Source: an uncultured bacterium (GTDB lineage Bacteria > Pseudomonadota > Alphaproteobacteria > UBA8366 > JADFVY01). From it: 64,000 nt of DNA. Made by a program: the position numbers and the translations under genes. Position 1 is the first letter of the stretch. Every line of letters starts with the position of its first letter. Below, piece after piece: positions 7,685-46,189 of the stretch. Where the stretch lies: assembly GCA_965603635.1 (NCBI GenBank), contig CBFDDT010000003.1, positions 6,978-70,977 on the forward strand, read 5' to 3'. Below the pieces are notes generated by a model that worked only from the letters and a program-made list of their open reading frames with translations, did not search any database and had not been told where the DNA came from.

Positions 7685-7693
7685 GGGGGGCAA

Positions 7694-8318: not shown

Positions 8319-8351
8319 ACAAAAAGAATGACCGGCTCTTTCGAGCCGGCC
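8319..8351 (-). terminator. Rho-independent terminator acting on the minus strand only
   Basis: On the minus strand, ggccggctc-gaaa-gagccggtc forms a 9-bp stem with a GAAA loop, followed by attctttttgtg. The plus strand has no U-tract after the stem. Confidence 0.65.
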
Positions 8352-8715
8352 ATCCTCGGAGGTACATGAAGAAAGGTCCCTAAACATCCGATCATTCGGG
8401 TGCCTCGGGCTCGGTCAATCTGTCAATCTTCCGCCTTGCGGCCTGGATCGAACCTGACGGAGGGGTTCGTCTGGCTGTTCCTTCGGGGGCACGTCCTAGG
8501 GAACACAAATCATCCGACCTTACAGTTACAAACATCGTCTCTATCGCGTTGAATGTCAAGCGTTTGACTCGAAAAAATTAACTTCGTCGGTTCACCAACG
8601 AGAATCGGGGAAGTTGCAGACCATCCTTTGCCGCTGCAGGCTTGACCGCCGGTCGCCGGAGCGTCAGAACAAGCCCTGCCGCCGACAGGGCAGCGACTGC
8701 CAACGGGATAATTGA

Positions 8716-9303
8716 GTGACCGCTACACCACCACCACGTTTCGTGCTTGCCTCTGCCTCGCCCAGGCGGCTGGATTTGCTGGCCGGAATCGGCATCGCGC
8801 CGGATGTTGTCGACCCGGCGGCGGTCGACGAGACGCCGGGCAAGGCCGAGTTGCCACGCGACCACGCCGCCAGACTGGCCGGCGAGAAGGCCGCCGCCGT
8901 GCGGGCCCGCCATCCCGACGCGGTGGTTCTGGCGGCCGACACCGTGGTGGCGCTGGGCCGGCGCATCCTGCCCAAGGCGGAGGACGAGGCGACGGCGCGG
9001 CGCTGCCTGACGATGCTGTCGGGGCGACGGCACAAGGTAATCGGCGGGGTTACGGTAATCGGCGTGGACGGCGCCGAGTGGCGCCGCCTGGTTACCACAT
9101 CGGTGAGGTTCAAGCGGCTGGATATAGCCGAAATTGAGGCCTATATCGCTAGTGGCGAGTGGGACGGCAAGGCCGGCGGCTACGCTATCCAGGGCCGCGC
9201 GGCCGCACTGATCCCCTGGATCGAGGGGTCCTGGTCGAACGTCGTGGGGCTGCCGCTATACGAAACGGCGCAGCTGCTGCGCAACGCGGGGGTAGTTGCA
9301 TGA
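8716..9303 (+). CDS. maf: Maf-like nucleoside triphosphate pyrophosphatase
   Basis: FVLASASPRRLDLL..., ...GKAGGYAIQG. GTG start. The stop overlaps the next gene's ATG. Confidence 0.9.
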   Translation: MTATPPPRFVLASASPRRLDLLAGIGIAPDVVDPAAVDETPGKAELPRDHAARLAGEKAAAVRARHPDAVVLAADTVVALGRRILPKAEDEATARRCLTMLSGRRHKVIGGVTVIGVDGAEWRRLVTTSVRFKRLDIAEIEAYIASGEWDGKAGGYAIQGRAAALIPWIEGSWSNVVGLPLYETAQLLRNAGVVA

Positions 9304-22621: not shown

Positions 22622-24511
22622 TTACTCCTCCACCTCCACGACCTTGGCCGGACGGCAATCGACGGCCTGGACGGGCAGGCGGACGGTGAAGCGGCTACCC
22701 TCGCCGGGTTTGCTGTCGACCGAAATGGCGCCGCCCATCATCTCGGAGTAGTGGCGGCATATGGCGAGCCCCAGGCCGGTGCCGCCATATTTCGAATCGC
22801 GGCCTGTTTCGGTCCGCTCGAAGGCCACGAACACGCTTTCCAGGCTGTCGCGCGCGATGCCGATGCCGCTGTCGGCAACGTAAAAGCGAATCCATTCCTT
22901 GCCGCCGGTGTGGGCATCGTCATGGAAGCGCGACATACCAAAGTGGATTTCGCCCTCGTCGGTGAATTTCGCGGCATTTGCCAGCAGGTTGAACAGAATC
23001 TGCTTCAACTTGGTGGCGTCCGCGCGCATGCGCCCCGGTTTGGTCGGGATGTCCAGGATCAGCTGGTTGCCATTGGCCTCCACAAGTGGGCGGACCGTCG
23101 CGGCGATCTCGCCTATCAGCACCGTCAGGTCGATTTCCTCCAAATGGAACTCAGTGCGCCCGGCCTCGATCCGCGACAAATCCAGTACTTCATTGATCAA
23201 CTGCAGCAGATGCCGGCCCGCGATATTAATGCGCTCCAGATCGGGTGCAAGATCGGATTGCCCGCGTTCCTCGACATCTTCCTTCAAAATTTCGCTGTAG
23301 CCGATAACCGCGTTCAGCGGGGTTCGCAATTCGTGGCTCATATTGGCGAGAAACTGCGATTTCGCCGCATTGGCCTCTTCGGCCTGAAACTTCGCGGCGA
23401 GCAATTCCTGTTCCACCTCGTAACGTTCTGTAATGTCCAGATTTGTGCCTGTTACGCGAATCGCCCTGCCCTCGGCGTCGCTGGCGATGTCCGCCTGTTC
23501 GAAGATCACCTTTTCGCTGCCGTCGGGCAGGATAATCCGGTAATCGCAGCTGTAGGGTTTGCATTGTGCGACGGCATCCCTGATCACCGCGTCGACGCGC
23601 TCGCGGTCCTCGGCGTGAACGATATTCAAGGTCGTGTCGTAGTCATAGGCCGTGGCGTTCATGTCCCGTCCGAACAGGCGGTTGTTTTCGTCGGACGAAA
23701 TAATCCTGTCATTGACGATGTCCCACTCCCAGCTACCAAGGCGCGCGATGCGCTGGGCGTTGGCCAGCGCCTTTTCCCGGTCGCGCAACATTTCTTCCAC
23801 CCGCTCGCGATCTGCGATTTCATTGCGCAAATTCTCGTTCAGGCTTTCCGCGCGCTCTTTCGCCTCAAGCGCCTTCTCGGTCTCTTCGATCAGGTTCGCC
23901 ACGAGTCCACGATTTTCGCCGGTCAGGCGTACGGCTTCGAGAACGACCCTTTCCTGCCGCTTTCCGGTCATCAACAGGAATGCCAGCAACACCGTGCCCA
24001 TTACCGCCATGGACCAGCCGATCTCACCGCCTTGCCAAGCGAAATAGAGGACTGCCGGCCCCAGAACCGGGATGACGAACAACAGGTAAGTCATGAAAAC
24101 GCGGGCCAGCGACGGCAGCCCACCCGCGGCCATCCCGCCCAACACGAAGGCCGTGAACACCTTGTGAAGCGGCGGCGCCTCGGACATCACGACCAGGCAA
24201 CCGACGCCCCAGCCGATGCCCGTTAATGTAGTGAGTACAGCCAGGCGCAGCAGCCACGCCCGTGCTTCGACTTCATCATAGCTACCGGCACGGCGGTGCC
24301 AGGCATACAGGGCAATGCGCGACATCATTACGCTGGCGATAAAGGCAAACCATCCTAGCAATATCGGGGATGGCAGTTCGCCGCGCATGACGAAGGACAG
24401 GACCGCGGCGTTTAACAGATTTACCGCAACCGTGGCCGGCGCGTCGGAATAGATCAACCGGACTCTGCCGGCGAGATAGGGTTCCCTGTCGTGTATGTCG
24501 GCGGAAGCCAT
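22622..24511 (-). CDS. Membrane sensor histidine kinase (multi-TM N-terminus, coiled coil, PAS, HisKA, HATPase_c)
   Basis: The H-box is [21 protein letters not shown], and the N/G boxes are LLANAAKFT and [11 protein letters not shown]. Confidence 0.9.
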
Positions 24512-24540: not shown

Positions 24541-26484
24541 TCAATTCGTTGCCCCGGCAATCGCCGGAGCGAGGGACGCGCTGGCTTTAGCCGGCAAGCG
24601 AACCGTAAAGACGCTGCCCCGGCCGAGCTCGCTCTCGGCCGATATCGCGCCGCCCATCATCTCACAGTAATGCCGGCTTATGGCCAGACCCAGGCCGGTG
24701 CCCCCATATTTTCGCGTAGTGGAGGGGTCCAGTTGGTCGAAGGCCCGGAAGGCGGCCTCGATCCGGTTCGCCGCCATGCCGATGCCGCTGTCGGTTACGG
24801 TGAATAGGATCCAGCCATCATGGCCCTCCGCCTCTGGCTCCTCCAGGCGATGCACCTTGACGGTTATCCGTCCCTCTTCGGTGAATTTCGCGGCGTTCGA
24901 TAACAGATTATACAGGATCTGACGGACCTTGGTCGCGTCGGCGGCCATTTCGCCCAAGTCCGGGTCGCAATCGACGGTCAACTCGTTGCCCTTGGCCGCG
25001 GCAAGTGGGCGAACCGTCGAGACCACATCGCCGACCAATTCAGAGACTCTGAACGATTCAATATACAGTTCCATCCGTCCGGCTTCGATTTTCGACAGGT
25101 CCAGCACCTCATTGACCAGCGCCAGCAGATGCCGCCCCGCCGTGTTGATTCGGTCCAGATCGACCGAGCTTTCCTCCTGGCCCGCCTCCACCGCATCTTC
25201 CTTCAGGATTTCGCTGTAGCCAATAATGGCGTTCAGCGGGGTCCGGAATTCGTGGCTCATATTAGCCAGGAACCGTGACTTGGCGCGGCTTCCCTCCTCG
25301 GCCTGAGATTTCGCCGCCTCCAGTTCCCGCAATACCCGGTGCTGTTCGGTAATGTCATGGGTTGTCCCGGTCATGCTCGCGGGACGGCCACTATCGTCGA
25401 ACATCGTCTCACCACGTTCATGCAGGACTCGCGCCGTGCCGTCAGCCAGAAAAGCGCGATGTACCACGCTATAGATCGAGCCATCTTCGAGTGAAGCGTT
25501 GACCGCTTTGGTAACGGCGTCCCGGTCATCCGGGTGCACCATTCCCATGAACTGATCGAACGTGATGGATTCAGTGGCCCGGTCGATAGCGAAGATACTA
25601 TAAGCCTCATCCGATCCACGAATTTCGTTCGTTACCAGGTTCCATGTCCAGCTTCCAAGCCCGGCTATACGCTGTGCATTCGCAAGGCTTGCCTCTCGCT
25701 CTCGCAACTCACCACCGACCTTTTCGCGTTCAGCCATTTCGTGCCGCAGCTCAGCGTTCAACTGCTCGGCCCGGGCTTTCTCAGCCGTCAGATGTTCGAT
25801 CAGCCCCTGGTTTTCCATTGATAACCCGAGCGATTGTTCCAGTGAGTCGCTTTGTTTTCGTCCGGCAAGCAGCAAAAAAGTCAGGAACAGAACCGACATG
25901 GCGGCCATGCCGTACCCGGATTCTCCTCCCACCCTTGCGAAATGGACGGCGACAGGGGTTACCGACGGAATCACGAAGGCCAGATATGCCGGATAATAAC
26001 GCGTCAGGGTAATTACCGCGCCCGCGGCCGACCCACCGAGCACACCGACGGTGATTATCTGATACGGTGGCCCCGCCTCCGGCAGCATGAAAATGCCCGC
26101 AAGACCCCAAGCCACGCCGGTCCACAGGGCTCCGAGCGAATAGTACCGCGCCCAGTTCCCCATCGCGCCATCCGTTGGCGCGGCCGCCCTGAACCTGCTT
26201 ACCAGCCAAACCCGCCAGAGGATGCCAGCCGCCATGAAGGCCGACCACCCAGCCAGGATACCGGCATCCACCATGTTGCGAAAAACTATTGCCAGGATCA
26301 CGGTATTTATGACGTTTACTGTCGTGGTCTGCCCAATGCCCGAGTACAGCAGCCGCACACGCGCCGCATATATCCGCTGCTCCAGTCCACCGGACAGGAC
26401 CGTGGTTGGCATGGGGGCGACGAAGGAACCGCCGGTATCCAATTCGTTCTTGATCTGGCTTGTCATAAATTCGGTGCGACTCAC
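24541..26484 (-). CDS. Membrane sensor histidine kinase, tandem paralog of the downstream kinase
   Basis: It has the same architecture. The H-box is [21 protein letters not shown], with [11 protein letters not shown]. Confidence 0.9.
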   Translation of the reverse strand: MSRTEFMTSQIKNELDTGGSFVAPMPTTVLSGGLEQRIYAARVRLLYSGIGQTTTVNVINTVILAIVFRNMVDAGILAGWSAFMAAGILWRVWLVSRFRAAAPTDGAMGNWARYYSLGALWTGVAWGLAGIFMLPEAGPPYQIITVGVLGGSAAGAVITLTRYYPAYLAFVIPSVTPVAVHFARVGGESGYGMAAMSVLFLTFLLLAGRKQSDSLEQSLGLSMENQGLIEHLTAEKARAEQLNAELRHEMAEREKVGGELREREASLANAQRIAGLGSWTWNLVTNEIRGSDEAYSIFAIDRATESITFDQFMGMVHPDDRDAVTKAVNASLEDGSIYSVVHRAFLADGTARVLHERGETMFDDSGRPASMTGTTHDITEQHRVLRELEAAKSQAEEGSRAKSRFLANMSHEFRTPLNAIIGYSEILKEDAVEAGQEESSVDLDRINTAGRHLLALVNEVLDLSKIEAGRMELYIESFRVSELVGDVVSTVRPLAAAKGNELTVDCDPDLGEMAADATKVRQILYNLLSNAAKFTEEGRITVKVHRLEEPEAEGHDGWILFTVTDSGIGMAANRIEAAFRAFDQLDPSTTRKYGGTGLGLAISRHYCEMMGGAISAESELGRGSVFTVRLPAKASASLAPAIAGATN

Positions 26485-32775: not shown

Positions 32776-32822
32776 ACACCATCGGGGAAAATTTGGATCA
32801 GAGGTTCTTTGGGGAGAAATCG

Positions 32823-33476
32823 ATGATAATGGGTGTGATAGATCGCCAATGGCTGCAGGGAATTGTTACGGGATTCGCTTTTGCGATTCTGGCGGCAATG
32901 CTGGCGCCATCGGCTAACGCGGCCGCGCCTGGGGAGGAGGCGGAAGCGTTTATGAATGACTTGGCGGTAACCGGGATCGCCCTGCTGGAAAAGGGCGATT
33001 ACACGAAGAGTGAGCGCGAACTGAAATTCCGCGAAATCGTCAGCAAGGGTTTCGCCCTGAAGGCTATCGGAAAATTCGTGGTCGGCCGCTACTGGCGCAA
33101 GATGGACTCGGTGCAGCAGGATGAATATCAGGAACTATTCTCCGAATGGCTGCTTAAGACCTATGCGAACCGCTTGGGCGGTTACCGCGGGCAGACGGTG
33201 GAAATCGTCAAGAGCATTGAGACTGCCTCCCGACATAAGGACGTCATCGTTACGACTCGGATAAACTTGGCGAACGGGCAGCCACCGATCAACATCGATT
33301 GGCGCGTGCGAAAATTTGGCGACGAATACAAGATCATCGACTTAGCCTTTGAAGGCGCAAGCATGATCGGCACACAGCGCAAGGAATTCGAATCGATCAT
33401 ACGGAAGGTGGGCGTTACCGGCCTGATAGACAGTCTGCGCGAGCGTCTCTCCGTGCTTCTGGCGGACACCGGCTGA
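32823..33476 (+). CDS. MlaC/Ttg2D-family phospholipid-binding periplasmic protein
   Basis: FREIVSKGFALKAIGKFVVGRYWRKM...EYQELFSEWLLKTYANRL. It has a signal peptide. The start is ATG 32823 after GGGGAG; TTG 32793 is an alternative. Confidence 0.8.
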   Translation: MIMGVIDRQWLQGIVTGFAFAILAAMLAPSANAAAPGEEAEAFMNDLAVTGIALLEKGDYTKSERELKFREIVSKGFALKAIGKFVVGRYWRKMDSVQQDEYQELFSEWLLKTYANRLGGYRGQTVEIVKSIETASRHKDVIVTTRINLANGQPPINIDWRVRKFGDEYKIIDLAFEGASMIGTQRKEFESIIRKVGVTGLIDSLRERLSVLLADTG

Positions 33477-33539: not shown

Positions 33540-34844
33540 TCAGTTGCCGCGCTCGGGATCGGTTATGTGTTTCAGATAGGCGATCAGTTCGGCGCGGTCC
33601 CGCGGTTCGTTCATGCGTTGCAGCGGCATCTTGGAACCCGGGGTGAACAGGTCGGGACCCTCGGCAAATAGCCTGTCTATATTTTCTTCTGTCCATATTA
33701 TGTCCGTGCCGACCAGCGCATCGGAATAGGGATACCCTTCGACGGTTCCGGCCGGGCGGCCGAATACACCGTATAAAGTCGGTCCCGCCTTGTCGGCGCC
33801 ATCAATTTCCGTAGTGTGGCAGGCCCGGCATTTACGAAACAGGCGGGCGCCCCGACTGCCGTCTTCCTCGTGCCCGGCGCCGGCGGTTTCCGTCAATTCG
33901 CCACCTAGCGGAATGCCGTATTCAACGTCCCAGATACGAACGATCCCGTCGGCGCCGGCCGACAGCAACAATCTGCCGTCTGGTGTAAAGGAAAGAGACC
34001 AGACCGGACCTTCATGACCTTCCATGGCATGGACGATTTTACCGCTGGCGAGGTGCCAGATCCTGACAGCCTTGTCGATACCGCCAGACGCAACCAGTTT
34101 TCCATTCGCGGAAATCGCGATCCCTATTATGGGGCCCGCATGGCCATACCAAATGGCCAGTTCCCGCCCGGTTTCCAGGTCCCACAAGCGGACGGTTTCG
34201 TCCACGCTGCCCGAGATCGCCTGGCGGCCGTCCGGCGTGAAGACGACGCTGTTTACGGCAAAGTCGTGGCCGGTTACCGTCAACAGCAATGCGCCGTCGG
34301 CGACGTTCCACAGATGCATGCTGGAATCATGCGCGCCCGAAAGCAACTTCTTGCCGTCCGGCGAGAACGCCACCGCATTGAAATTAGTATCGCGGCCTTC
34401 AAGTATACTCAGCGTTTCGCCCGACTCGATATCCCAGATCCGGATACTGCGATCCCAGGCCGCCGTGGCAGCGAGTTGGCCGTCCGGCGATACCGTCACG
34501 GCCGCTATCTTTCCCCTGTGCCCTGAGTATTTCCGGAGGACGGTTCCATCATCCAGTGACCAGAGAATCATCATTCCGTCGTCTGCGCCGGAAACAGCGC
34601 GGGCGCCGTCAGGCAGGAAGGCGACGCTGTTAACGCCGCCCTCATGGCCGTTGAACCGACCCGCCCTGCCGCTGTCCGGCAGGTTCCAGTGCATAACGGA
34701 ATAATCGAAGCTGGCGGTTAGCGCATGCCGGCCGTCCGGGGATATGGCGACGTCCTTGACGAAGCCGCCATGCCCCACGAGGTCGGCGCGCGCCACCGCC
34801 GACACGAACAGAACGGCCAGCGCGCTTGCTGTCCAGAACTTCAC
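33540..34844 (-). CDS. Secreted 7-blade WD40 beta-propeller fused to a C-terminal class I cytochrome c domain
   Basis: The signal peptide is VKFWTASALAVLFVSAVARA. Seven GH...W(D/N/S/H) repeats are present. The C-terminus reads FRKCRACH...GPTLYGVFGR...GSKMP...IAYLK. GTG start at 34844 after GGAGAG. Confidence 0.85.
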   Translation of the reverse strand: MKFWTASALAVLFVSAVARADLVGHGGFVKDVAISPDGRHALTASFDYSVMHWNLPDSGRAGRFNGHEGGVNSVAFLPDGARAVSGADDGMMILWSLDDGTVLRKYSGHRGKIAAVTVSPDGQLAATAAWDRSIRIWDIESGETLSILEGRDTNFNAVAFSPDGKKLLSGAHDSSMHLWNVADGALLLTVTGHDFAVNSVVFTPDGRQAISGSVDETVRLWDLETGRELAIWYGHAGPIIGIAISANGKLVASGGIDKAVRIWHLASGKIVHAMEGHEGPVWSLSFTPDGRLLLSAGADGIVRIWDVEYGIPLGGELTETAGAGHEEDGSRGARLFRKCRACHTTEIDGADKAGPTLYGVFGRPAGTVEGYPYSDALVGTDIIWTEENIDRLFAEGPDLFTPGSKMPLQRMNEPRDRAELIAYLKHITDPERGN

Positions 34845-34935
34845 GACCAGTACCCTCTCCTGTCCCGGTTCATGGTTCGGGAAACGGCGCGGCACGAAGG
34901 ACCACCTTTCAGGCAGCCCTTCGCGCCTTGCCCAA

Positions 34936-36102
34936 TCAGGCGGTCTGCGGTTTGGCGTCCCCGGCCACGGCCGTGGAACCGCCATCACCATCGTGATCCG
35001 GCGGCGGCGCCTCGCCTTTGACCTCGGCGACCCAAAGCCCATGATGTTCACGGGCCCAGTTCTCATCGACCATGCCGCTACCCATGGCGTCCCATGCACC
35101 TTCCATGCCCACTGATCCAATATAGATATGAGAGATGATGATGGCGATCATCACCGCGGCCATGACGGCATGCCAGAGAAGTGAAAGCTGCAGCTCCTCG
35201 ATCCCCGTAAGCGCGGTCGGGAGGTTCAGTCCAAAGACATTCAATAACGAGAAGGTCGGCCCAAACACGCTGAACGTGGAGGGGAACATCATCGACAATC
35301 CAGAAACGCTAAGCGTAACGCCCCCCAAAACAACGGACCAGAAAATGAATTTCTGACCGGCATTGAATTTTTTTGCGGGCGGGTGAACGTCCTTGGTAAA
35401 CAGCCCGCCGCCGACGGCAAGCCATTTCAGGTCGATACCCCGTGGGATATTATCCTTTACCCACAGCACGAAGATCAGCACGATCCCCGCCATAAAGGCG
35501 AAGGCGACGTAATGGTGAAGCAGTTTTCCATAGTAGGCGGTAAAGGCAAAAATTTGGTGCAACGCCCCGAATTCGCCAGGCGTCTCGCCCGCCTTGCCGA
35601 AAAGATAGCGGCCGTACATGACATTCAGTCCGGTTAACCCCAGCACGATGAAGCTGCCCGCGGTCAGCCAATGACCGATAAGTTCGATGCGGCTGAAACG
35701 TTCTATCAGCCTGCCGCTGAGCCCCGAGTCGATGCGTATGCGACCGCGCAGACCAAAGAAAAATCCCAGAATGACAAGCATGCCAACAATCATCCAGCCG
35801 CCGAAACTGGCAACGGGCCCATTGCGAGCATTACGCCAGTTCTCGCCCTCTGACTGGATCATCACCCCGGCCTTTTTGTCCGGGATCGAGACCGTGAATT
35901 GCTCTCCCTGGCGCACGGAGCGCCAAAACTCTGCGTCACTGTTCGCGCCAAGCGACTCGCCCGGCACCTCACCGGCTTGTTGCGCCATCGCCATGCCGGA
36001 GAAACCCGGCAGTTCGATCGTCGCCACGCCGAAGCCGGCCGCAAGCGTCAGCACGACCATAAATCGTGCAACATAACTGAAAGATTTGATTATTTTAGAC
36101 AT
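34936..36102 (-). CDS. Formate dehydrogenase gamma subunit (cytochrome b) with an N-terminal periplasmic extension
   Basis: The FdnI-type 4-TM core has conserved His residues (IGHWLTAG, LLHHYVAF, NAGQKFIFW, SHIYIG). The start is ATG 36102 after GGAGAG. Confidence 0.85.
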   Translation of the reverse strand: MSKIIKSFSYVARFMVVLTLAAGFGVATIELPGFSGMAMAQQAGEVPGESLGANSDAEFWRSVRQGEQFTVSIPDKKAGVMIQSEGENWRNARNGPVASFGGWMIVGMLVILGFFFGLRGRIRIDSGLSGRLIERFSRIELIGHWLTAGSFIVLGLTGLNVMYGRYLFGKAGETPGEFGALHQIFAFTAYYGKLLHHYVAFAFMAGIVLIFVLWVKDNIPRGIDLKWLAVGGGLFTKDVHPPAKKFNAGQKFIFWSVVLGGVTLSVSGLSMMFPSTFSVFGPTFSLLNVFGLNLPTALTGIEELQLSLLWHAVMAAVMIAIIISHIYIGSVGMEGAWDAMGSGMVDENWAREHHGLWVAEVKGEAPPPDHDGDGGSTAVAGDAKPQTA

Positions 36103-36136
36103 TCGCCCTCTCCGAAGAAATGGGTTTGCCGGATCG

Positions 36137-36337
36137 TTACCGTTGGCCATTGGCCCGATAACGAAGTTCGGTTAATTGCTCGTCCGTCAGGTTCTGGTCC
36201 GGCTTACCCATATAGGTCCCCTTTTCGAACTCCAGCGTTCTGTTCTGTTCTTCCTTGCGGCAACCACTGATCGCCAGTCCGGCCACCAACAGGCAGCCCA
36301 GCAACAGTGGCAAACGCGCTCTGCTCATTCCGTTCAT
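36137..36337 (-). CDS. 66-aa lipoprotein, hypothetical
   Basis: The lipobox is LLGCLLVAGLAISGC, after MNGMSRARLP. It sits between the FDH beta and gamma genes. Confidence 0.5.
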   Translation of the reverse strand: MNGMSRARLPLLLGCLLVAGLAISGCRKEEQNRTLEFEKGTYMGKPDQNLTDEQLTELRYRANGQR

Positions 36338-36491: not shown

Positions 36492-37088
36492 TCAGCTTCC
36501 CGATTTAAGCTGATAAGCCGTTCCCCAGCCCCAGGCGCCCGAGCCGAAGCCACGCGCTACAACGCGTTCGCGATAGATGTCGGATACGACATTGCCATCG
36601 CCGGCGAGTAGCGCCTTGGTCGAGCACATTTCCGCGCAAAGCGGGAGCTTGCCCTCGGCCAGACGGTTACGGCCATATTTCTGGAACTCAGCGTCGGACA
36701 TATCTTCTTCCGGGCCACCATTGCAGAAGGTGCATTTATCCATCTTGCCGCGGCTGCCAAAATTACCGGCGCTTGGATATTGGGGCGCGCCAAACGGGCA
36801 GGCGTAGAAGCAATAACCGCAACCGATGCACAGATCCTTGGAATGCAGAACCACGCCTTCCTCGGTTGAGTAGATGCAGTCGACCGGACACACCGCAATA
36901 CACGGTGCGTCCGAACAATGCATGCAAGCCACCGAAATCGAGCGTTCACCCGGTTTGCCGTCATTGATAGTAACGACCCGCCGGCGGTTTACACCCCACG
37001 GAACTTCGTTTTCGTTCTTACATGCAGTAACACAGGCGTTGCACTCGACACAGCGCTCGGCGTCACAAAGGAATTTCATGCGTGCCAT
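36492..37088 (-). CDS. Formate dehydrogenase iron-sulfur (beta) subunit, 4x[4Fe-4S] ferredoxin type, no membrane anchor
   Basis: The cysteine clusters are CVECNACVTAC, CMHCSDAPC, CIGCGYCFYAC and CTFC; 198 aa. Confidence 0.9.
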   Translation of the reverse strand: MARMKFLCDAERCVECNACVTACKNENEVPWGVNRRRVVTINDGKPGERSISVACMHCSDAPCIAVCPVDCIYSTEEGVVLHSKDLCIGCGYCFYACPFGAPQYPSAGNFGSRGKMDKCTFCNGGPEEDMSDAEFQKYGRNRLAEGKLPLCAEMCSTKALLAGDGNVVSDIYRERVVARGFGSGAWGWGTAYQLKSGS

Positions 37089-37101: not shown

Positions 37102-39969
37102 TCACGCTTTCTCGATGTTGCACAGGGTGACCTTCGACTCCTGCATGTGGGTTACCACATCATAGCCGTAAGTGCCGCAGGTGTTCGATGACTCGCCAAC
37201 AACGTACGGCACGGTGCCGTCCGGATATTTGTGGCTAAAGTCCTCGCCCTGGAAATGCCCGCCGAAATGGAACGGCATAAAGGCAACGCCTTGTCCGACA
37301 CGTTCGGTGATCATCGCCTTGACCTTGACCTTGGTGTTCTCCGGGCTGTGGACCCAGATATCGTCACCCTCGCGAATGCCGAGATTGTTGGCGTCGATCG
37401 TGTTGATTTCGCAGAACATGTCCTGCTGCAACTCGGCCAGCCAGGGGTTCGACCGGGACTCGTCGCCGCCGCCCTCATATTCGACCAGACGGCCGGAAGT
37501 GAGGATGATCGGATGCGACTGCGAGAAGTCCTGATCCTGGATCGTCTTGTACATGGTCGGCAAGCGGTACTTCTTGCGATCCTCGTAGGTCGGATAATCG
37601 GCCACGAGATCACGCCGCGGCGTGTAGAGCGGTTCGCGATGCAGCGGAACCGGATCCGGGAAAGTCCAGACCACCGCCCTTGCCTTCGCATTACCGAAGG
37701 GTGCACAGCCATGCTTGATGGCGACCCGCTGGATACCGCCGGAAAGGTCGGTCTTCCAGTTGGTCTTGTCGCCGGCAACCTTGTCGATAGAGGCCTGTTC
37801 TTCGGCCGTCAGGTCGCCTTCCCAACCAAGCTTCTTGAGCACGCCCATGTTGAACTCGGGATAACCGTCCTCGATCTCCGAGCCGACCGAATAGGAGCCT
37901 TCGGCAAGCAGGTTGTCGCCCTCCCGTTCCACGCCGAAGCGTGCACGGAAGTTGAGACCGCCCTCGGCCACGGACTTGGAGGTGTCATAAAGGATAGGCG
38001 TGCCCGGATGTTTCATCTCCGGCGTTCCCCAGCACGGCCAGGGAAGGCCGTAATATTCACCGTCGACCGGCCCGCCAATCGCCTGCAGCGTGGTCTTGTC
38101 GAAGGTGTGCTGGTTTTCCATGTGAAGTTTCAGGCGCTCCGGCGACTGGCCGGTATAACCGATGGTCCACATGCCGCTATTGAACTCACGGGTCGTGTCC
38201 TCGATCGAAGGCTCGTTATTCTCGACCTTGATGTTTTTGAACATCTCGTCGGCGAAACCGAGCTTCTGGGCCAGGAGATACAGAATCTCATGGTCGGTCT
38301 TGGAATTCCACACCGGATCGACGACCGTTTCGCGCCACTGCAGTGAACGGTTGGACGCGGTGACCGAGCCGTAAGTCTCGAACTGCGTCGCCGCCGGCAA
38401 CAGATAGACGCCGTCCTTGCGATCATGCAGCACGGCGGAGACCGTCGGATAGGGGTCGATCACGACCATCAAATCCAGTTTCTCCATCGCCACCTTCATT
38501 TCCGCGAGGCGGGTTTGCGAGTTCGGTGCATGGCCATCGAACACCATGGCGCGGACATTGTCCGGCTGATCCATGTTCGCCTTGTCTTCCAGCACGCCGT
38601 CGATCCAGCGCGATACCGGAATGCCAGCCGATTCCATCAATTTCTGGTCGGCGAACCGGCCCAGCAGATAGTCGTAATCGACATCCCAGACACGGGCCCA
38701 ATGCTTCCAGGATCCGGTCTTCAGACCGTAATATCCCGGCAGCGAATGGCTGAGCACGCAGAAGTCCGTGGCGCCCTGCACATTGTCATGGCCGCGGAAG
38801 ATGTTGGCGCCGCCGCCGGCGGTACCCATGTTGCCCAAGGCCAACTGCAGTACGCAGTAGGCGCGGGTGTTGCTGCTACCCGTGGTGTGCTGGGTGCCAC
38901 CCATGCACCAGACGATGGTACCCGGGCGGTTATTGGCCAGCGTCCGCGCGACGCGCTTCATCTGCGAGCCGGGAACGCCGGTGACCCGCTCGGTCTCTTC
39001 CGGGGTCCACTTCGCGACCTCGGCCTTGATCTGATCCATGCCCCAGACGCGGCGGCGGATGAATTCCTTGTCCTCCCAGCCGTTCTCGAACACATGCCAC
39101 AGAATGCCCCAGATCAGCGCGACGTCCGTGCCAGGACGGAACCGGACATATTCGTCGGCATGAGCCGCCGTGCGTGTAAAGCGCGGATCGCAAACGATCA
39201 GCGGCGCGTTATTCTGCTCCTTGGCCTTGAGGATATGCTGCATCGCAACCGGATGCGCCTCGGACGGGTTGGAGCCAATCAGGAACATCGCACGGGAATT
39301 GTGGATGTCGTTGAAGCTGTTGGTCATCGCACCATAGCCCCAGGTGTTCGCAACACCAGCGACCGTGGTCGAATGACAGATACGGGCCTGATGGTCACCG
39401 TTGTTCGAGCCCCAGAAGGCATAGAACTTGCGGAACAGATAAGCCTGCTCGTTGTTATGCTTCGCCGAGCCGAGCCAGTAGACCGAATCCGGCCCCGACT
39501 CTTCGCGGATCTTCAGCATTTTGTCGCCGATCTCGTTGATGGCGTCTTCCCAACTGACCGCCTTGTACTTGCCGTCAATCAGCTTCATTGGTGTCCGCAG
39601 TCGCTTTTCGCCGATCTGATGTTCGCGAACCGAGGCGCCCTTGGCGCAATGCGAACCGAGATTAAAGGGGCTGTCAAAACCGGGTTCCTGCCCGATCCAG
39701 ACGCCTTTCTGGACTTCGGCGACGACCGTGCAGCCCACGGAACAATGGGTGCAAACGGACTTCTTGATTTCGATATCGGCGCCACCGGCCGCGGCTTCGG
39801 CCTTCTTGACCATGCCGCCGCTCAGCAGGCTGCCGGCCGCGATGCCGCCAGCCGCCAGGCCCGAATTACGCAGGAAGGTACGGCGATCGACCGCCCCGCC
39901 CGTCACGCCGGCCAGGGCCCGCGAGATGTTGGTGCTCCGTGCGAGCCCCTTTGATTTTTTTCTAAGCAT
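37102..39969 (-). CDS. Formate dehydrogenase alpha subunit (Mo/W-bis-PGD), Tat-exported, cysteine-type
   Basis: The twin-arginine signal is VDRRTFLRNSG. The N-terminal FeS motif is CTHCSVGC. The active-site block ARICHSTTVAG aligns to ARVUHGPTVA of E. coli FdnG, with the Cys codon TGT at 39376-39378. Confidence 0.95.
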   Translation of the reverse strand: MLRKKSKGLARSTNISRALAGVTGGAVDRRTFLRNSGLAAGGIAAGSLLSGGMVKKAEAAAGGADIEIKKSVCTHCSVGCTVVAEVQKGVWIGQEPGFDSPFNLGSHCAKGASVREHQIGEKRLRTPMKLIDGKYKAVSWEDAINEIGDKMLKIREESGPDSVYWLGSAKHNNEQAYLFRKFYAFWGSNNGDHQARICHSTTVAGVANTWGYGAMTNSFNDIHNSRAMFLIGSNPSEAHPVAMQHILKAKEQNNAPLIVCDPRFTRTAAHADEYVRFRPGTDVALIWGILWHVFENGWEDKEFIRRRVWGMDQIKAEVAKWTPEETERVTGVPGSQMKRVARTLANNRPGTIVWCMGGTQHTTGSSNTRAYCVLQLALGNMGTAGGGANIFRGHDNVQGATDFCVLSHSLPGYYGLKTGSWKHWARVWDVDYDYLLGRFADQKLMESAGIPVSRWIDGVLEDKANMDQPDNVRAMVFDGHAPNSQTRLAEMKVAMEKLDLMVVIDPYPTVSAVLHDRKDGVYLLPAATQFETYGSVTASNRSLQWRETVVDPVWNSKTDHEILYLLAQKLGFADEMFKNIKVENNEPSIEDTTREFNSGMWTIGYTGQSPERLKLHMENQHTFDKTTLQAIGGPVDGEYYGLPWPCWGTPEMKHPGTPILYDTSKSVAEGGLNFRARFGVEREGDNLLAEGSYSVGSEIEDGYPEFNMGVLKKLGWEGDLTAEEQASIDKVAGDKTNWKTDLSGGIQRVAIKHGCAPFGNAKARAVVWTFPDPVPLHREPLYTPRRDLVADYPTYEDRKKYRLPTMYKTIQDQDFSQSHPIILTSGRLVEYEGGGDESRSNPWLAELQQDMFCEINTIDANNLGIREGDDIWVHSPENTKVKVKAMITERVGQGVAFMPFHFGGHFQGEDFSHKYPDGTVPYVVGESSNTCGTYGYDVVTHMQESKVTLCNIEKA

Positions 39970-40007: not shown

Positions 40008-40205
40008 TTAGAATTTCGCAAGGTCGTAATAGGTGCGAACATGCTCCGTTTCACGATAACCGGAGCTCTTGGTGTTTATTTCTGCCGCCGCCTCGGCCTT
40101 GCTGGCCGACGTGGCAATTGCCGCGGCGCCCACAACGCCGCCCAGACCTGCAATCTTCAGAAGATCGCGGCGTGCGACCTGCTGTTTTTCTTTTTTCGTT
40201 TCCAT
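40008..40205 (-). CDS. Formate-dehydrogenase-region TAT target small protein
   Basis: This 65-aa protein has the Tat signal ARRDLLKIAG and the C-terminal motif YRETEHVRTYY, which matches Y-[HRK]-x-[TS]-x-H-[IV]-x-x-[YF]-Y. Confidence 0.85.
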   Translation of the reverse strand: METKKEKQQVARRDLLKIAGLGGVVGAAAIATSASKAEAAAEINTKSSGYRETEHVRTYYDLAKF

Positions 40206-41101: not shown

Positions 41102-41662
41102 TTAACCGAGGTCTTCGTCATCTTCATCCGGGATATCACCGGCACCATCGTCGATTGTCGGGTGCACGTCCGGGATACCTTTCTCGTCGGACTCGCCGTC
41201 GGCGCTTTCCTCACTGCCCACGGGCTCCTCCGGGTCCAACGCTGCTTCCTGTTTTTCTTTCTTGGGATAACCCTTGCCGACCTCCCAGGCGCTTTTCATG
41301 CCCTTGATCACCGTCGCGGCGTCCGTGTAGTCCTCGCCATATTCTTCCATGCCATCGATAACGTTGAAGACCGGGTCGCTGGACCACAGCTTGCGCAGGG
41401 CTTGGCGGCGGAGCGCCTTGGGCACGCCTTGCTTCATGAAGGCCGTGAAGTCGGAGTCAGCGGTCAGCGATTCGATATCCGGCAAATCCGGCGGCGGCGT
41501 CTCATCCGCTGGCGCATCCTGTCCGGTTTCGTCGGGCTGTGCCGCATCCACGGGCAGGTCGGCATTTTCCTCGCGCAGTTCCGGCGCCGCGCCGCCGCGG
41601 CCGTCGCGCACTTCCGCCTTGCGCCGCGACCAGCGGCTTAGCCTGCTTTCGTCAGAGGTCAT
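41102..41662 (-). CDS. DUF3306-like protein
   Basis: The N-terminus is LSRWSRRKAEV, followed by an acidic low-complexity region and a conserved C-terminal half. The ATG at 41662 overlaps the upstream gene by 11 nt. The family name is from memory. Confidence 0.7.
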   Translation of the reverse strand: MTSDESRLSRWSRRKAEVRDGRGGAAPELREENADLPVDAAQPDETGQDAPADETPPPDLPDIESLTADSDFTAFMKQGVPKALRRQALRKLWSSDPVFNVIDGMEEYGEDYTDAATVIKGMKSAWEVGKGYPKKEKQEAALDPEEPVGSEESADGESDEKGIPDVHPTIDDGAGDIPDEDDEDLG

Positions 41663-42203
41663 GGCCGTCGCTCCATCCCGAACCGCGACCGTATCTGGGC
41701 TTGTCGCCCGAATCCTCGTCGAAATGCCGGCGCTGTTTGCGTTTCTTGAATGGCTCATCCACATGATGAAATTCAATAAAATCGCGCAGCCAGGCGACCA
41801 TGCCGTCAGGCATCGGCACTGCCTCTACGACATCCTCGCCGTCGAGATAATCCTGCGCCTCGAACGACGACACCGTGGCGACGAAGGGCTTCAGTTCATG
41901 TTCGCCCTCAAGATCCTCGCGCAGAACCACATAGACCGACGGCGGATCGCCGGTCAGGCAATCCAGGTAGGCCTGGGTATCGGTGCGGAACACCTCGATC
42001 TCCAGCGTGCCCGCGTGATAATGCTCCCAGTCCTCGCCTTCTTTCAATTTTTTCCAGGGACCATCGGGGTCCATCGGCGCCGCGCCCGGTATCACCGCGA
42101 CCGGCAGCCATATGTTATCCGCCCAGGGGTGACTGCTGTCGCGGCGTTCAACGACAATGCCCACGGGCATGGTTTCAATCCGGTTTTTGATTTCTTCGCC
42201 CAA
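41652..42203 (-). CDS. DUF3305-like protein
   Basis: PVGIVVERRDSSHPWADNIWLPVAVIPGA... The start is TTG 42203 after AAGGGG, or ATG 42170. The family name is from memory. Confidence 0.7.
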   Translation of the reverse strand: MGEEIKNRIETMPVGIVVERRDSSHPWADNIWLPVAVIPGAAPMDPDGPWKKLKEGEDWEHYHAGTLEIEVFRTDTQAYLDCLTGDPPSVYVVLREDLEGEHELKPFVATVSSFEAQDYLDGEDVVEAVPMPDGMVAWLRDFIEFHHVDEPFKKRKQRRHFDEDSGDKPRYGRGSGWSDGHDL

Positions 42204-42349
42204 AGCGCGCCCCTTGAAATTTCCGTTCAGGCACAGACTTTAGTCCCGCGCGCCGACAAGGCAAGCGTCAATATAGGCGACACCCTTGGCAGCGCGCGGC
42301 CAAACCGTTAGGGATTGCCCCCACGAAGACAAACCAACCTGGAAAACGA

Positions 42350-43366
42350 ATGACAGAACTCTGGCCCAGCTCCGGCTATCGGCTTCTTCAAACTGACGCG
42401 CAAGGGCGTCTGGCGGTGACCGACGATTTTCTGCGCGCCTATCTGACGCGGCCCGAAATTGCGCCGGTCGAGGAATCGCTGGATGCCGAACGCGAACTGC
42501 ATGCGGAATTGCTGGTCGATCCTCGCATGACGGTGGAGCCGGTCAGGCTGGCCGCGCTTGGCGATGCGGACGCGGCGGAAAATTACCAGGTCGTGTTGTC
42601 TTTTCGCGATCGCCTGGTCGCGGCCGGCACGATCGAGGCCTGTTATCGTGGGCTTTTCGACGGCAATCCGCCCGCCATACCCGTGCCGCCGCTGTTCGTG
42701 GATCAACTTGCCCATGTAATCATGCGCAATATTCTGGACGGCAATGACGACCCGTTCCGCGCCCGCGCCGGCGAATTGTTCTTCCGCAAGCAGACCGGCA
42801 TGAATCAGGACGGCGCGATCCTGCTGGGCGACGATGAGACCGTCGATATGTACCGCCAGCACGGATTCGGCAATATCGGCAAGCTGCTGGCCGAAGCGGG
42901 AACGCCGACCCGCCAGGTGGAACTGGATGTGCTGAACGCGGAAAATGCCGGGCAATTCTGGGATCGCAGCGACCGTTTCGACATGGTGCTGGACCTGACC
43001 TTCGGCCGCGAGGGGTTGGACGCGCTGTGCCGGGTGCTGGAGCAATGGGTCGGCCATTTTTTCGATCTGAAAGTTTCCGTGCAACCGGCACAAAGCGTAA
43101 AGGACGAACACTGGGTCTGGCATATCGGGCTGGATGCAATGGCCAGCGGAATATTGAATGACCTTTATAACGGCGTCGATGTCGAGGAAGAACGGCTGGC
43201 CCGTCTGATATCCCTGTTCCGGCTGGAATTCGCCGATCCCCGGGCCTCCCTGCCACGCGTGGCTGGCCGGCCAATCTATCTGGCGCTGGCCATGGCGGAG
43301 GACAATTCGGTGCGGCTGAAGCCGCAGAATCTACTGGTCAATCTGCCGGTGGCGGAAATCGTTTAA
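42350..43366 (+). CDS. Conserved hypothetical protein (338 aa)
   Basis: A long ORF with good coding character. I recognise no catalytic motif. It is the first gene of a three-gene plus-strand unit. Confidence 0.7.
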   Translation: MTELWPSSGYRLLQTDAQGRLAVTDDFLRAYLTRPEIAPVEESLDAERELHAELLVDPRMTVEPVRLAALGDADAAENYQVVLSFRDRLVAAGTIEACYRGLFDGNPPAIPVPPLFVDQLAHVIMRNILDGNDDPFRARAGELFFRKQTGMNQDGAILLGDDETVDMYRQHGFGNIGKLLAEAGTPTRQVELDVLNAENAGQFWDRSDRFDMVLDLTFGREGLDALCRVLEQWVGHFFDLKVSVQPAQSVKDEHWVWHIGLDAMASGILNDLYNGVDVEEERLARLISLFRLEFADPRASLPRVAGRPIYLALAMAEDNSVRLKPQNLLVNLPVAEIV

Positions 43367-43386
43367 AGAAAATGGAGAAGAAGAGC

Positions 43387-43593
43387 ATGAACGAAGACGC
43401 ATTTAATATGAGCATCCGCAAGTTCCTGAAGAAGGTCGGCGTGACCTCGCAGCGCGAGATCGAGCATGCGGTGCACGAAGCGCTCGCCGACGGCAAAATC
43501 ACCGGCGACACGACCCTGAAGGCCAAGGTGGTGCTGACCGTCGACGGCATCGACCTGTCGGCGACCATCGAAAGCGACATCGAACTGGAATGA
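43387..43593 (+). CDS. Small conserved hypothetical protein (68 aa)
   Basis: MNEDAFNMSIRKFLKKVGVTSQREIEHAV... A GGAGAAG RBS precedes ATG 43387; ATG 43372 is an alternative. Confidence 0.6.
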   Translation: MNEDAFNMSIRKFLKKVGVTSQREIEHAVHEALADGKITGDTTLKAKVVLTVDGIDLSATIESDIELE

Positions 43594-43892
43594 CCGGCGA
43601 GGATAGAACATCGCCGCTGGACCACCCCGCCGCGCGCCTTGCCGCGGTGACGATTGCACTGGCCGGTTTGGCCTTCCTGGGCTGGATGCACCGCAACGAT
43701 TTGTTCCCGCCGGAACCCGGCGCGGCCCCGGGCGACCCCAGAGAGGCCGCCTTCCAGGCCTGCTTCGCACCCCAGGCCGCGCGCATCGCGAAGGACGCGG
43801 AAAGCGGCCAGATCAGCGCCGAGCAGGCCACCCTGTTCCGCGGCCGCGCCGAAGCCTTCTGCGCCGACAAGGCGGCGAAGGGCAGGCAATAG
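43590..43892 (+). CDS. Small membrane-anchored hypothetical protein (100 aa)
   Basis: It has an ATGA overlap with the upstream gene and one TM helix (LAAVTIALAGLAFLGWM). Confidence 0.5.
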   Translation: MTGEDRTSPLDHPAARLAAVTIALAGLAFLGWMHRNDLFPPEPGAAPGDPREAAFQACFAPQAARIAKDAESGQISAEQATLFRGRAEAFCADKAAKGRQ

Positions 43893-43895
43893 CCG

Positions 43896-45971
43896 TCAGC
43901 CCTCGCCCTCTTCCTTCGCCCGTTCGGCCAGCACCCGCGCCCTCTCCTTTACGATCTCTTCCTCGCGTTCGCGCAGATCGTCGTCGGTGGTCCGGGGTTT
44001 GGGGCGGTCGGCGCCCTTGAAGGGGTCGTCCTTGGCATCGAACTGGTCGATAACCCGGCAGTCGTCGCACATCTTGATGCGCTCGGCCATCGGGCCGTCG
44101 GCGAACATCGGGTTCTTGCCGGCCAGCTTTTCGAAAATATGCTCGATCGAGCTCTTGGTGCCGAAGGGCTTGCCGCAACGCACGCATTCGAAGGGTTCTT
44201 CCTCCTTCAGGACGACGGCGCGGCGGGAGTCGGCGGTAAAGGCCAGGCGTGGCTCCAGCTTGATCACCGATTCCGGACAGGTGCTGCGGCACAGCCCGCA
44301 TTGCACGCAGGCCTGTTCGTCGAACGAGAGTTGCGGTTTGTCTGGATTGTCGCGCAGCGCACCCGTGGGGCAGGCGCCGATGCAGGACAGGCACAGCGTA
44401 CAGCCGGCGTCGTCCACCACCAACCGACCGAAGGGCGCGCCGTCGGGTAGCGGCACGATATCGGCGGGCGTCGGCGCGACCTCGTGCAAATGAGCCAGCG
44501 CCAGCCCGATCACCGCGCGCTTGCCACCCGCCGCCAGGAACGAGCCAGGCTTTGCCGACGCGGGGCTCTTCGTGTCCCACAGCAGGCGCTCCACGGCGTC
44601 CGGGTCGGCCTCGGCGATTACCGACACCCGGCCGCCGCCATAACCCAGACCGTCCGTCACCGCCTCGGCAAGGCCGATCTGCTGGGCCAGCCCGGCCAGT
44701 TCATCGCGGCGGTCCGGCCCCACCAGGATACGCAGGGCCGACGCCCCCCATCCCAGCGCGCAGGAGATCAGGTCAAAGCCCGCCATGGTGACCTCATGCA
44801 CCGCAAAGGGCAGCACATTGGCCGGCAGCCCGCGCCCGAACCGCGCCATGGCGTCGATCACATCCGCGCCGTGGCCCTCGTCATGCAGCAACAGCACGGC
44901 ATCCTTGCCGCCCGCCGCGTGGTAGGTGGTCAGCATCGTGCGCAGGCGGCCCAGCAGCGCGTCGGCCGGGGGCATGTCGTAGCGCGCGGCGCCCGTCGGG
45001 CAGACGCTGTTACAGCCGCCGCAGCCGCCACAGACATAATTGTCGATCTCCACATGGTCGCCGGCCGGGGTAATGGCCGAGACCGGGCAGACATCGATGC
45101 AGCGGGTGCAGCCGATTTTCATGCTGCGCGAATGGGCGCAAAGATCGGGCGTGAAATTCACATAGCGCGGTTTCTCGAACTCGCCCACCATATCGGCCAG
45201 CTCGAACAGCGCCTTCTGTACTGCGGCCGGGTTCCCGGGGTCGGGGCGCAGATAGCCGTCGATGCGCTCACCGGCGGGGAACAGGGGTGCGCCGCCGGTA
45301 AGGTCCAGGATCAGGTGGCATTTGGACACCGCCCCGTTGCGGGGATTCTCAAAGGAGAGAGTTCCACGCGACGACACGCTGGCCGGCGCGTAATCGTCGA
45401 CGCCGATCTCGAAGGCGCCCATATGGCCCTTCGCCATTCTGACCGTTCCCCGAAAAACGGGAACGTCCATAATTCGCGGCGGCATGATATCGCCGGGGCG
45501 GTCCAGCAGCAGGGTGACGTCCAGCCGCCCGGCAAGCTGTTGCGCGGCCTCCAGCGCGACCTCGTCGCGGCCATAGACCAGGCAGACACCATCGGATGCC
45601 AGGGTAACCGTCGGGGTCGGCGGAATGTCCAGGGCGGCCTCGGCCAGCAGGGCGGCAATTTTCGCCGTCGCCTTCGCGCCATTCTCGGACCAGCCGGCAC
45701 GCTCGCGGATATTCACATGGCCCAGCGCAGCCGCGCCCTCGCCCACTTCCCCGGCGACCTCGTCGAACAGCGGCGCTTCCTGGGTGCAGGCGACCAGCGC
45801 CTGGCCGCCCTTGGCGATTTCGCCCCGGAAATTGTCGATCTGCGCGCGGCAGAGCTGGCTGGCGATCTCGGGCGCGCCATCGGCGCCGCAAGCCTTGGCC
45901 AGCGCCTTGCCGTCCAGCGCCATGCTGTGCTCGCAATCGCAGAGCAATATCCGTCTGCCGTTGATTTCCAT
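43896..45971 (-). CDS. Large polyferredoxin-like 4Fe-4S protein (691 aa)
   Basis: It has several CxxCxxCxxxCP clusters (CTRCIDVCP, CGGCGGCNSVCP, CTLCLSCIGACP, CVQCGLCRSTCP). The start is ATG 45971 after GGGAGAGG. Confidence 0.85.
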   Translation of the reverse strand: MEINGRRILLCDCEHSMALDGKALAKACGADGAPEIASQLCRAQIDNFRGEIAKGGQALVACTQEAPLFDEVAGEVGEGAAALGHVNIRERAGWSENGAKATAKIAALLAEAALDIPPTPTVTLASDGVCLVYGRDEVALEAAQQLAGRLDVTLLLDRPGDIMPPRIMDVPVFRGTVRMAKGHMGAFEIGVDDYAPASVSSRGTLSFENPRNGAVSKCHLILDLTGGAPLFPAGERIDGYLRPDPGNPAAVQKALFELADMVGEFEKPRYVNFTPDLCAHSRSMKIGCTRCIDVCPVSAITPAGDHVEIDNYVCGGCGGCNSVCPTGAARYDMPPADALLGRLRTMLTTYHAAGGKDAVLLLHDEGHGADVIDAMARFGRGLPANVLPFAVHEVTMAGFDLISCALGWGASALRILVGPDRRDELAGLAQQIGLAEAVTDGLGYGGGRVSVIAEADPDAVERLLWDTKSPASAKPGSFLAAGGKRAVIGLALAHLHEVAPTPADIVPLPDGAPFGRLVVDDAGCTLCLSCIGACPTGALRDNPDKPQLSFDEQACVQCGLCRSTCPESVIKLEPRLAFTADSRRAVVLKEEEPFECVRCGKPFGTKSSIEHIFEKLAGKNPMFADGPMAERIKMCDDCRVIDQFDAKDDPFKGADRPKPRTTDDDLREREEEIVKERARVLAERAKEEGEG

Positions 45972-46189
45972 TAATGCGTTCCTCTCCCGCCATTTCCGGC
46001 TGTTGAAATCTTTACCACCACGGAAATAGTCCGCCGCGCCGCTGGTACCATAGCGCGGCCCCTGGCGGAAGCCCATGCGGGGCAGAAAAGGGGCCGGCGG
46101 GGCGTGATTACCGGCAACCGGTCGCCAATCGAGCGGCCTTGAAACGCCATTGATCCCGCCTGCGATGTTTTTTTTCCAACTATGTCAGG

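Follow-up and report, generated by a model that had tools for sequence, protein, structure and literature searches.

Within a 64,000-nucleotide (nt) stretch of contig CBFDDT010000003.1 from an uncultured alphaproteobacterium of the UBA8366 lineage (hereafter the window), a minus-strand gene at 33540..34844 encodes a 434-amino-acid protein predicted to join a WD40 beta-propeller, through a flexible linker, to a monohaem cytochrome c. This WD40-cytochrome c gene adjoins formate dehydrogenase (FDH) genes predicted to specify a periplasmic enzyme of the FDH3 type. Comparison of related loci makes it very probable that the protein is functionally associated with FDH3, where it would probably serve as an optional, extra electron-transfer subunit. 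For the more specific proposal that the propeller docks onto the complex and that its haem carries electrons from formate to cytochrome c, we consider the chances even.

The gene reads without interruption in reverse translation from a GTG start codon (34844-34842), with the ribosome-binding site GGAGAG (34860-34855) 10 nt ahead of it, to a TGA stop codon (33542-33540). A longer open reading frame of 526 codons starting at TTG 35120 was rejected: it overlaps fdhG, the gene of the FDH gamma subunit, it has no ribosome-binding site, and close relatives begin at the GTG position. At the N-terminus, a hydrophobic stretch (residues 5-24) terminating in A-R-A before an aspartate looks like a cleavable signal peptide, and a Sec-type signal with cleavage after A-R-A is predicted for residues 1-21 (34782..34844). 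N-termini across the family, as seen in an alignment of 25 members, are variable yet hydrophobic; attachment of c-type haem requires export to the periplasm. Residues 22-310 (33915..34781) form a predicted seven-bladed propeller, in which Pfam finds seven PF00400 WD40 repeats (E 3.7e-69; 226.7 bits, cut-off 27). In an AlphaFold2 model computed from the 25 aligned sequences (mean predicted local distance difference test score, pLDDT, 87), residues 21-306 are arranged into 28 strands, or seven four-stranded blades, at pLDDT >90. Foldseek aligns this model with crystal structures of seven-bladed WD40 proteins at target-normalised TM-scores of 0.95-0.97.

The propeller is followed by a linker of about 20 residues (311-330; 33855..33914; pLDDT ~50), whose length and sequence differ among the aligned family members, and then by a class I cytochrome c domain of the mitochondrial/c2 type (33543..33854), which is helical in the AlphaFold2 model. 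The C-terminal 121 residues (314-434) match PF00034 Cytochrom_C at 38.5 bits (cut-off 21.3). Their best sequence match in the PDB is yeast iso-1 cytochrome c (E 8e-24), and other mitochondrial cytochromes c match as well; the score against the NCBIfam CycA c550 model (54, cut-off 240) is below threshold, which indicates that the domain is not that specific ortholog. The only two cysteines of the protein lie in its single CxxCH motif, C339-R-A-C-H343 (33816-33830), and the distal ligand would be Met406 (33627-33629) within P402-G-S-K-M406. C339, C342, H343 and M406 are invariant in 25/25 aligned family members, as is much of both domains. The architecture predicted from sequence and model is that of a Sec-exported fusion of WD40 propeller, linker and monohaem class I cytochrome c with His/Met ligation. 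An earlier note on this DNA, made from the letters of the sequence, had described a signal peptide, seven WD40 blades, a short linker and a class I cytochrome c with CRACH and GSKMP motifs, a description that is confirmed here.

To place the gene in its genomic context, metagenomes were scanned with the family alignment, which yielded 448 relatives, and 80 loci were fetched. Look-ups of exact proteins contributed further loci, as did annotated plasmids and chromids, and the FDH proteins of the window were mapped onto all of them. The resulting 89 related loci, designated by L and a number, collapsed to 66 clusters at 90% identity; the synteny counts given here have as their denominators the cluster representatives with enough upstream sequence, and the metagenomic sample is biased toward relatives of the window protein. 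The gamma gene stands directly upstream of the WD40-cytochrome c gene in 46/53 clusters, while FdhB is present in 28 of 35 and FdhA in 25 of 27. Only two loci contain no FDH gene at all, and both have <800 nt of sequence upstream. Genes are most often arranged in the order DUF3305, DUF3306, TorD, a Tat-signal (twin-arginine translocation) protein, FdhA, FdhB, a lipoprotein, gamma, often a PepSY-like protein, the WD40-cytochrome c, and often a 42-residue membrane peptide. Cultured Alphaproteobacteria whose proteins are 37-39% identical retain the linkage to FDH3 in two gene orders. In Salipiger the order is fdhA, fdh3B, gamma and the WD40-cytochrome c gene, and in Sinorhizobium meliloti, Bradyrhizobium and Methylobacterium bullatum the gene lies at the opposite end of the cluster, convergent with a 4Fe-4S protein gene and ~11 kb from gamma. 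Altogether, the linkage to FDH3 extends over 66 sequence clusters and three arrangements of genes, in at least three orders of Alphaproteobacteria and down to 37% identity. Its survival of rearrangement strongly indicates that the protein is functionally tied to FDH3. The earlier note had proposed a protein dedicated to FDH and had named the synteny of orthologs as one check; orthologs are not scattered and nearly all lie in FDH3-type clusters, an association that supports the proposal well.

In the window itself, the fdhG stop codon (34936-34938) leaves a spacer of 91 nt (34845..34935, minus strand) ahead of the WD40-cytochrome c gene, as the earlier note had reported, with both genes on the same strand. 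The spacer holds the ribosome-binding site (34855-34860) and a GC-rich hairpin at 34891-34927 with 17 base pairs (-55.2 kcal/mol, z -4.3) and no U-tract after it; a comparable spacer hairpin is present in loci L002 and L008. Because of this strong hairpin, which has no U-tract, co-transcription with the gamma gene is likely but not certain. As a separate observation, the hairpin could be an attenuator or a messenger RNA stability element that sets subunit stoichiometry. On the other side, the next gene (32793-33476, plus strand; MlaC/HpnM-like) is convergent, and the WD40-cytochrome c gene is therefore the last of the FDH cluster on the minus strand, the position already assigned to it. The hairpin is also what could be cited for an independent periplasmic cytochrome that is merely located after the FDH genes. 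Such a coincidence is contradicted by the linkage across clusters, gene orders and taxonomic orders, and we regard it as highly improbable.

The WD40-cytochrome c gene is not a fixed part of FDH3 clusters. In a tblastn comparison with PLSDB, which covers plasmids and chromids only, 99 replicons encode Fdh3B and about twenty encode a full-length WD40-cytochrome c. The FDH3 clusters of Azospirillum and Variovorax are without the gene. A close pair is given by Pseudosulfitobacter, where gamma is followed by a 41-residue peptide and a sigma-54 regulator, and Salipiger, where gamma is followed by the WD40-cytochrome c, a 43-residue peptide and the sigma-54 regulator, in layouts that are otherwise identical. 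Judged by gene content, the gene is optional and dispensable for the FDH3 cluster as such. The many FDH3 clusters without it make an essential maturation or structural role unlikely, and the difference between Salipiger and Pseudosulfitobacter is more easily squared with an optional outlet for electrons than with an indispensable maturation factor. Copies in Sinorhizobium sp. K101 and M103 (PLSDB NZ_CP104132.1 652279-653325 and NZ_CP104128.1 99256-100302), annotated as hypothetical proteins, give matches that end at query residue 374, before the Met-ligand region, and may be truncated or decaying.

The same pattern bears on a non-redox role, in which the propeller would help periplasmic FdhAB to assemble or stay stable at the membrane, the cytochrome domain being of no consequence. 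Propellers of the WD40 type serve generally as scaffolds for protein interaction, and the clusters hold other small periplasmic accessories (the lipoprotein, the PepSY-like protein and the 42-residue peptide), both of which would suit a scaffold or assembly factor. Many FDH3 clusters, however, manage without the protein, and the haem is likely to be functional, given that the CxxCH motif, the Met ligand and the greater part of the cytochrome domain are invariant or nearly so in the family. We consider a pure scaffold improbable. A similarly low probability attaches to a redox sensor or protective electron sink, for example one feeding a cytochrome c peroxidase or, in aerobes, shielding the oxygen-sensitive enzyme, in place of a respiratory branch. 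The optional nature of the gene and its occurrence in aerobic Alphaproteobacteria of sea and soil would suit such a role, and a sigma-54 regulator adjoins the cluster in Roseobacteraceae, but the same regulator is found in clusters without the gene, and a six-coordinate His/Met class I cytochrome c is, by textbook knowledge, typically an electron carrier and not a ligand-binding sensor.

The favored explanation is that the WD40-cytochrome c adds an electron outlet to FDH3. The propeller would act as a protein-docking module on the periplasmic face of the complex, where the candidate docking surfaces are the anchorless FdhB, the periplasmic extension of gamma and/or the small lipoprotein. The tethered haem domain would then swing. 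Its electron donor would be either the distal [4Fe-4S] cluster in FdhB or the outer haem b in gamma, and it would hand the electrons to high-potential c-type acceptors such as cbb3 or aa3 oxidases, or periplasmic reductases. The result would be an outlet from formate to cytochrome c parallel to the route from formate to quinone through gamma. In lacking a membrane anchor, FdhB is like its counterparts in cytochrome c-reducing periplasmic FDHs. One locus is of particular relevance to the path: in L014, a single metagenomic contig whose protein is 67% identical, the genes at 6849-9143 run fdhB, lipoprotein and WD40-cytochrome c, with gamma cleanly missing and 18 nt from the lipoprotein stop to the WD40 start. 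This arrangement fits a cytochrome able to serve FdhAB directly, and L014 may be a natural gamma-less FDH3. Extending the explanation further, FDH3 might be a branched enzyme, reducing either quinone via its cytochrome b or, directly, the cytochrome c pool and with it terminal oxidases or reductases, in a bypass of bc1, with a periplasmic WD40 propeller recruited as docking adaptor; we put this forward tentatively, as somewhat doubtful. WD40 propellers in bacteria are mostly cytoplasmic signaling proteins.

Several points weigh against an additional outlet of this kind. The window already encodes a canonical gamma cytochrome b of the quinone-reducing kind, and a second outlet is not required. 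Direct transfer of formate electrons (about -420 mV) to cytochrome c forgoes energy conservation. The hairpin in the spacer makes co-transcription with the FDH genes less than certain. Finally, L004 and L005 carry the WD40-cytochrome c gene with lipoprotein and gamma genes and have no fdhAB within 10 kb. These two belong, with L006, L007 and L086, to a subclade in which lipoprotein, gamma, PepSY-like protein, WD40-cytochrome c and 42-residue peptide form an operon of their own, and in L006 fdhA lies 7 kb off on the other strand. The gamma cytochrome b is the tightest neighbor of the gene, and in a few genomes the gene sits with gamma and away from fdhAB.

This closeness raises the alternative that the protein is a partner of gamma-type cytochrome b and not of formate oxidation in itself, such that gamma, WD40-cytochrome c, lipoprotein and PepSY-like protein would make up a membrane module exchanging electrons between the quinone pool and periplasmic cytochrome c, with FdhAB as just one possible input. 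The constancy of gamma as the nearest neighbor and the separate operon of the subclade speak for it. Set against these are the clusters of Sinorhizobium, Bradyrhizobium and Methylobacterium, with the gene and gamma at opposite ends, and L014, which has the WD40-cytochrome c gene and no gamma gene. Moreover, the FdnI-type quinone site faces the cytoplasm, and a flow from quinol to cytochrome c would oppose the membrane potential (E. coli FdnGHI, as in textbooks), while the lack of fdhAB in L004 and L005 applies to the surrounding 10 kb. On balance this partnership with gamma appears unlikely, and an optional electron-transfer subunit of FDH3 is the reading that we prefer.

The enzyme to which this subunit would belong is predicted from its genes to be an FDH3-type (Fdh3DABC) molybdenum/tungsten periplasmic formate dehydrogenase; its core genes are all on the minus strand. 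The gamma gene (fdhG; 34936..36150) encodes a dihaem cytochrome b that begins with a signal or anchor sequence and has ~60 additional residues in the periplasm. It matches PF01292 and scores 135.2 bits against the TIGR01583 formate-DH-gamma model, above the cut-off of 115.85, and has transmembrane segments along with His160, His212/213, His327 and His341, which supply the four histidines that two b haems would need. Between fdhG and fdhB, at 36137..36337, lies the gene of a small lipoprotein of ~66 residues (lipobox LAISGC), which has no Pfam family match; it is kept in most related FDH3 loci and is often unannotated. In Variovorax CP063167 the gene that corresponds to it by position has 83 codons (lipobox LAAC), and the Resistance Gene Identifier flags it as 'CAE-1 beta-lactamase', which looks like an annotation artefact. 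The beta gene (fdhB; 36492..37088) encodes a subunit for four [4Fe-4S] clusters, with 16 cluster cysteines and no transmembrane segment or membrane anchor, and scores 340 bits against the NF038355 FDH3_beta equivalog, above the cut-off of 240. The alpha gene (fdhA; 37102..39969) encodes a Mo/W-bis(pyranopterin guanine dinucleotide) protein with a Tat signal (twin-arginine motif RRTFLR), the domains PF04879, PF00384 and PF01568, and Cys198 at the selenocysteine position; its scores against two NCBIfam alpha equivalogs are both below cut-off.

Upstream of fdhA follow, still on the minus strand, an Fdh3D equivalent of 65 residues with a twin-arginine signal (40008..40205), whose homologs include L006_63 and genes with a Tat-signal annotation, a TorD-family chaperone gene (PF02613; 40269..40979) and the DUF3306 and DUF3305 genes (41102..42203), which are conserved FDH3-cluster accessories. 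Two Tat signals, RRDLLK in the Fdh3D-like protein and RRTFLR in FdhA, are thus encoded for one exported enzyme. A further FDH3-cluster accessory, the DUF6352 gene, is on the plus strand at 42350..43366, and the gene of a 726-residue multi-[4Fe-4S] protein, also a conserved accessory, is on the minus strand at 43896..46076. DUF3305, DUF3306, DUF6352 and the ~700-residue multi-[4Fe-4S] protein constitute an uncharacterised cytoplasmic set that accompanies FDH3 clusters (41102-46076 in the window; also L088-L090), to which Hyphomicrobiales clusters add DUF6505 and a biotin/lipoate-ligase-like gene. Farther off in the window, two adjacent minus-strand genes (22622-24511 and 24541-26484) encode PAS-HisKA-HATPase histidine kinases with the same domain order and look like a tandem duplication.

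Two small genes recur around the WD40-cytochrome c gene in other loci. In most relatives, even in some at 70-78% identity, gamma is separated from the WD40-cytochrome c by a gene for a secreted PepSY-like protein of 135-171 residues (L016 2253-2663; L012 ~3870-4270; L004 9475-9990; L006 9476-9982); its PepSY match is weak (E 3.8e-4, below the cut-off). A conserved single-helix peptide of 41-43 residues (MKAF...) follows the FDH3 cluster in genomes both with and without the WD40-cytochrome c (L004 11391-11519; L006 11385-11513; L089 10222-10353; L093 10930-11055). A search of the window for the PepSY-like gene and the 42-residue peptide gene found neither, and only the 91-nt spacer occupies the PepSY position. 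In several metagenomic loci, genes for an NAD-linked cytoplasmic FDH lie convergent just downstream of the WD40-cytochrome c gene (L023 3111-7582 and L038 2281-6776, both on the minus strand; also L030, L032, L035 and L058), comprising an FdsA-like alpha subunit above the TIGR01591 cut-off and a fused NuoE/NuoF-like subunit. Such combinations of NAD-linked FDH and FDH3, as predicted from their genes, are formate islands, and they tie the neighborhood to formate metabolism.

The WD40-cytochrome c family is, by sequence comparison, large, widespread, conserved and uncharacterised. A search of 5.8 billion proteins returned >4000 matches at E<=1e-10, most of which are probably generic WD40 proteins. 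Among the best 120 matches, nearly all are 420-470 residues long and ~50% identical over their full length, with both domains present, and the names given to them, if any, are 'cytochrome c' or 'c-type cytochrome'. A collection of 15 billion proteins does not contain the window protein in identical form; its nearest relatives come from metagenome-assembled genomes labeled Proteobacteria or Alphaproteobacteria. A scan of genome contigs with the single protein found two close relatives and one unrelated WD40 protein, the peptide patterns being too specific. NCBIfam and Pfam hold no model specific to the family, and searches of the PDB by sequence and fold returned structures with either a WD40 propeller or a cytochrome c, none of them combining the two domains. 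No publication on a WD40-cytochrome c protein was found in the literature, in a search to which subscription journals were largely closed and in which absence is no proof, and the literature on Methylobacterium extorquens FDH3, as far as accessible, makes no mention of one. The view of the earlier note that no example has been characterised agrees with all of these sources.

Methylotrophs, rhizobia and marine bacteria of the Roseobacter group all have formate as a central intermediate of one-carbon metabolism. To our knowledge, FDH3 is the only periplasmic formate dehydrogenase of these groups, and its electron acceptor beyond the predicted cytochrome b is unstudied. The conserved haem-bearing accessory described here has so far been annotated as just a 'c-type cytochrome'. 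Were it a working subunit, it would alter the view of the connection between formate oxidation and respiration, whether aerobic or denitrifying, alter estimates of energy yield on formate and methanol, and extend the list of natural FDH redox partners for CO2-reduction biocatalysis. If FDH3 were indeed branched, the protein would add a further class to the redox partners of FDHs, which so far comprise NAD, ferredoxin, F420, quinone and multihaem cytochromes c, and would give a bacterial WD40 protein its first respiratory role. As a remote corollary, and a speculation beyond these data, the covalent pairing of WD40 and cytochrome c in Alphaproteobacteria could bear on the origin of cytochrome c recognition by the WD40 propellers of Apaf-1. 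Sinorhizobium, Bradyrhizobium, Methylobacterium and Sagittula all include carriers of the family that can be cultivated and are amenable to genetics, and such strains, together with natural pairs with and without the gene such as Salipiger and Pseudosulfitobacter, make the hypothesis directly testable.

Among known systems, the partners of periplasmic FDHs listed in a 2026 review are multihaem cytochromes c only, with no monohaem class I cytochrome and no propeller (PMC13397495). The nearest comparison is with FdhABC3 of Desulfovibrio/Nitratidesulfovibrio, grouped with the soluble acceptor TpIc3, which likewise combines a periplasmic Mo/W FdhAB and an anchorless iron-sulfur subunit with an operon-encoded c-type cytochrome thought to accept electrons (PMC13397495). 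The cytochrome of FdhABC3, however, is a low-potential, bis-His tetrahaem class III c3 without a propeller, in an enzyme without a cytochrome b, whereas the window protein has one His/Met class I haem (one CxxCH, not four), a WD40 propeller, and a gamma cytochrome b in its cluster. It resembles the FdhABC3 cytochrome in being encoded with fdhAB; it differs in that FdhABC3 has no integral membrane subunit, whereas among our loci gamma is missing in L014 only.

FDH3 (fdh3DABC) of M. extorquens, the reference for the NCBIfam FDH3_beta model, shares with the window cluster the small Tat-signal protein, alpha, the anchorless beta and the cytochrome b gamma. Its published description differs in comprising four genes, with a predicted periplasmic location, and M. 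bullatum of the same genus carries the WD40-cytochrome c beside its FDH3 cluster. FDH-N (FdnGHI) of E. coli also has a periplasm-facing alpha-beta pair and a quinone-reducing dihaem cytochrome b gamma, with the four haem-ligand histidines in matching helices. In contrast to the window enzyme, FdnH has a C-terminal membrane helix, FdnG contains selenocysteine, and neither a cytochrome c nor a lipoprotein or propeller protein is part of the system; alpha and gamma of the window score below the FDH-N model cut-offs.

With respect to the tethered haem, Rhodobacter cytochrome cy and Paracoccus c552 hold a c2-type haem domain near its partners on a flexible linker, in the manner of a swinging arm. 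These cytochromes have a linker and haem domain in common with the window protein, but a membrane helix anchors them, and they work with bc1 and the oxidases; here the N-terminus looks like a cleavable signal peptide, a propeller intervenes, this soluble WD40 propeller would provide the anchor, and the partner indicated by genomic context is FDH3. Type II quinohaemoprotein alcohol dehydrogenases and cytochrome cd1 nitrite reductase do unite a periplasmic beta-propeller and a class I cytochrome c in one polypeptide. Their propellers, however, have eight blades and hold pyrroloquinoline quinone (PQQ) or haem d1, whereas the seven canonical WD40 blades of the window protein give no sign of a cofactor site. 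A cofactor-binding propeller of the PQQ or d1 type was rejected on the number of blades and the canonical WD40 sequence, and the best structural matches of the window propeller are all plain, cofactor-free WD40 proteins. By analogy with the tethered cytochromes cy and c552 and with the cytochrome c3 of FdhABC3, the WD40-cytochrome c would work like a dedicated cytochrome partner of a periplasmic dehydrogenase, by means of a new architecture.

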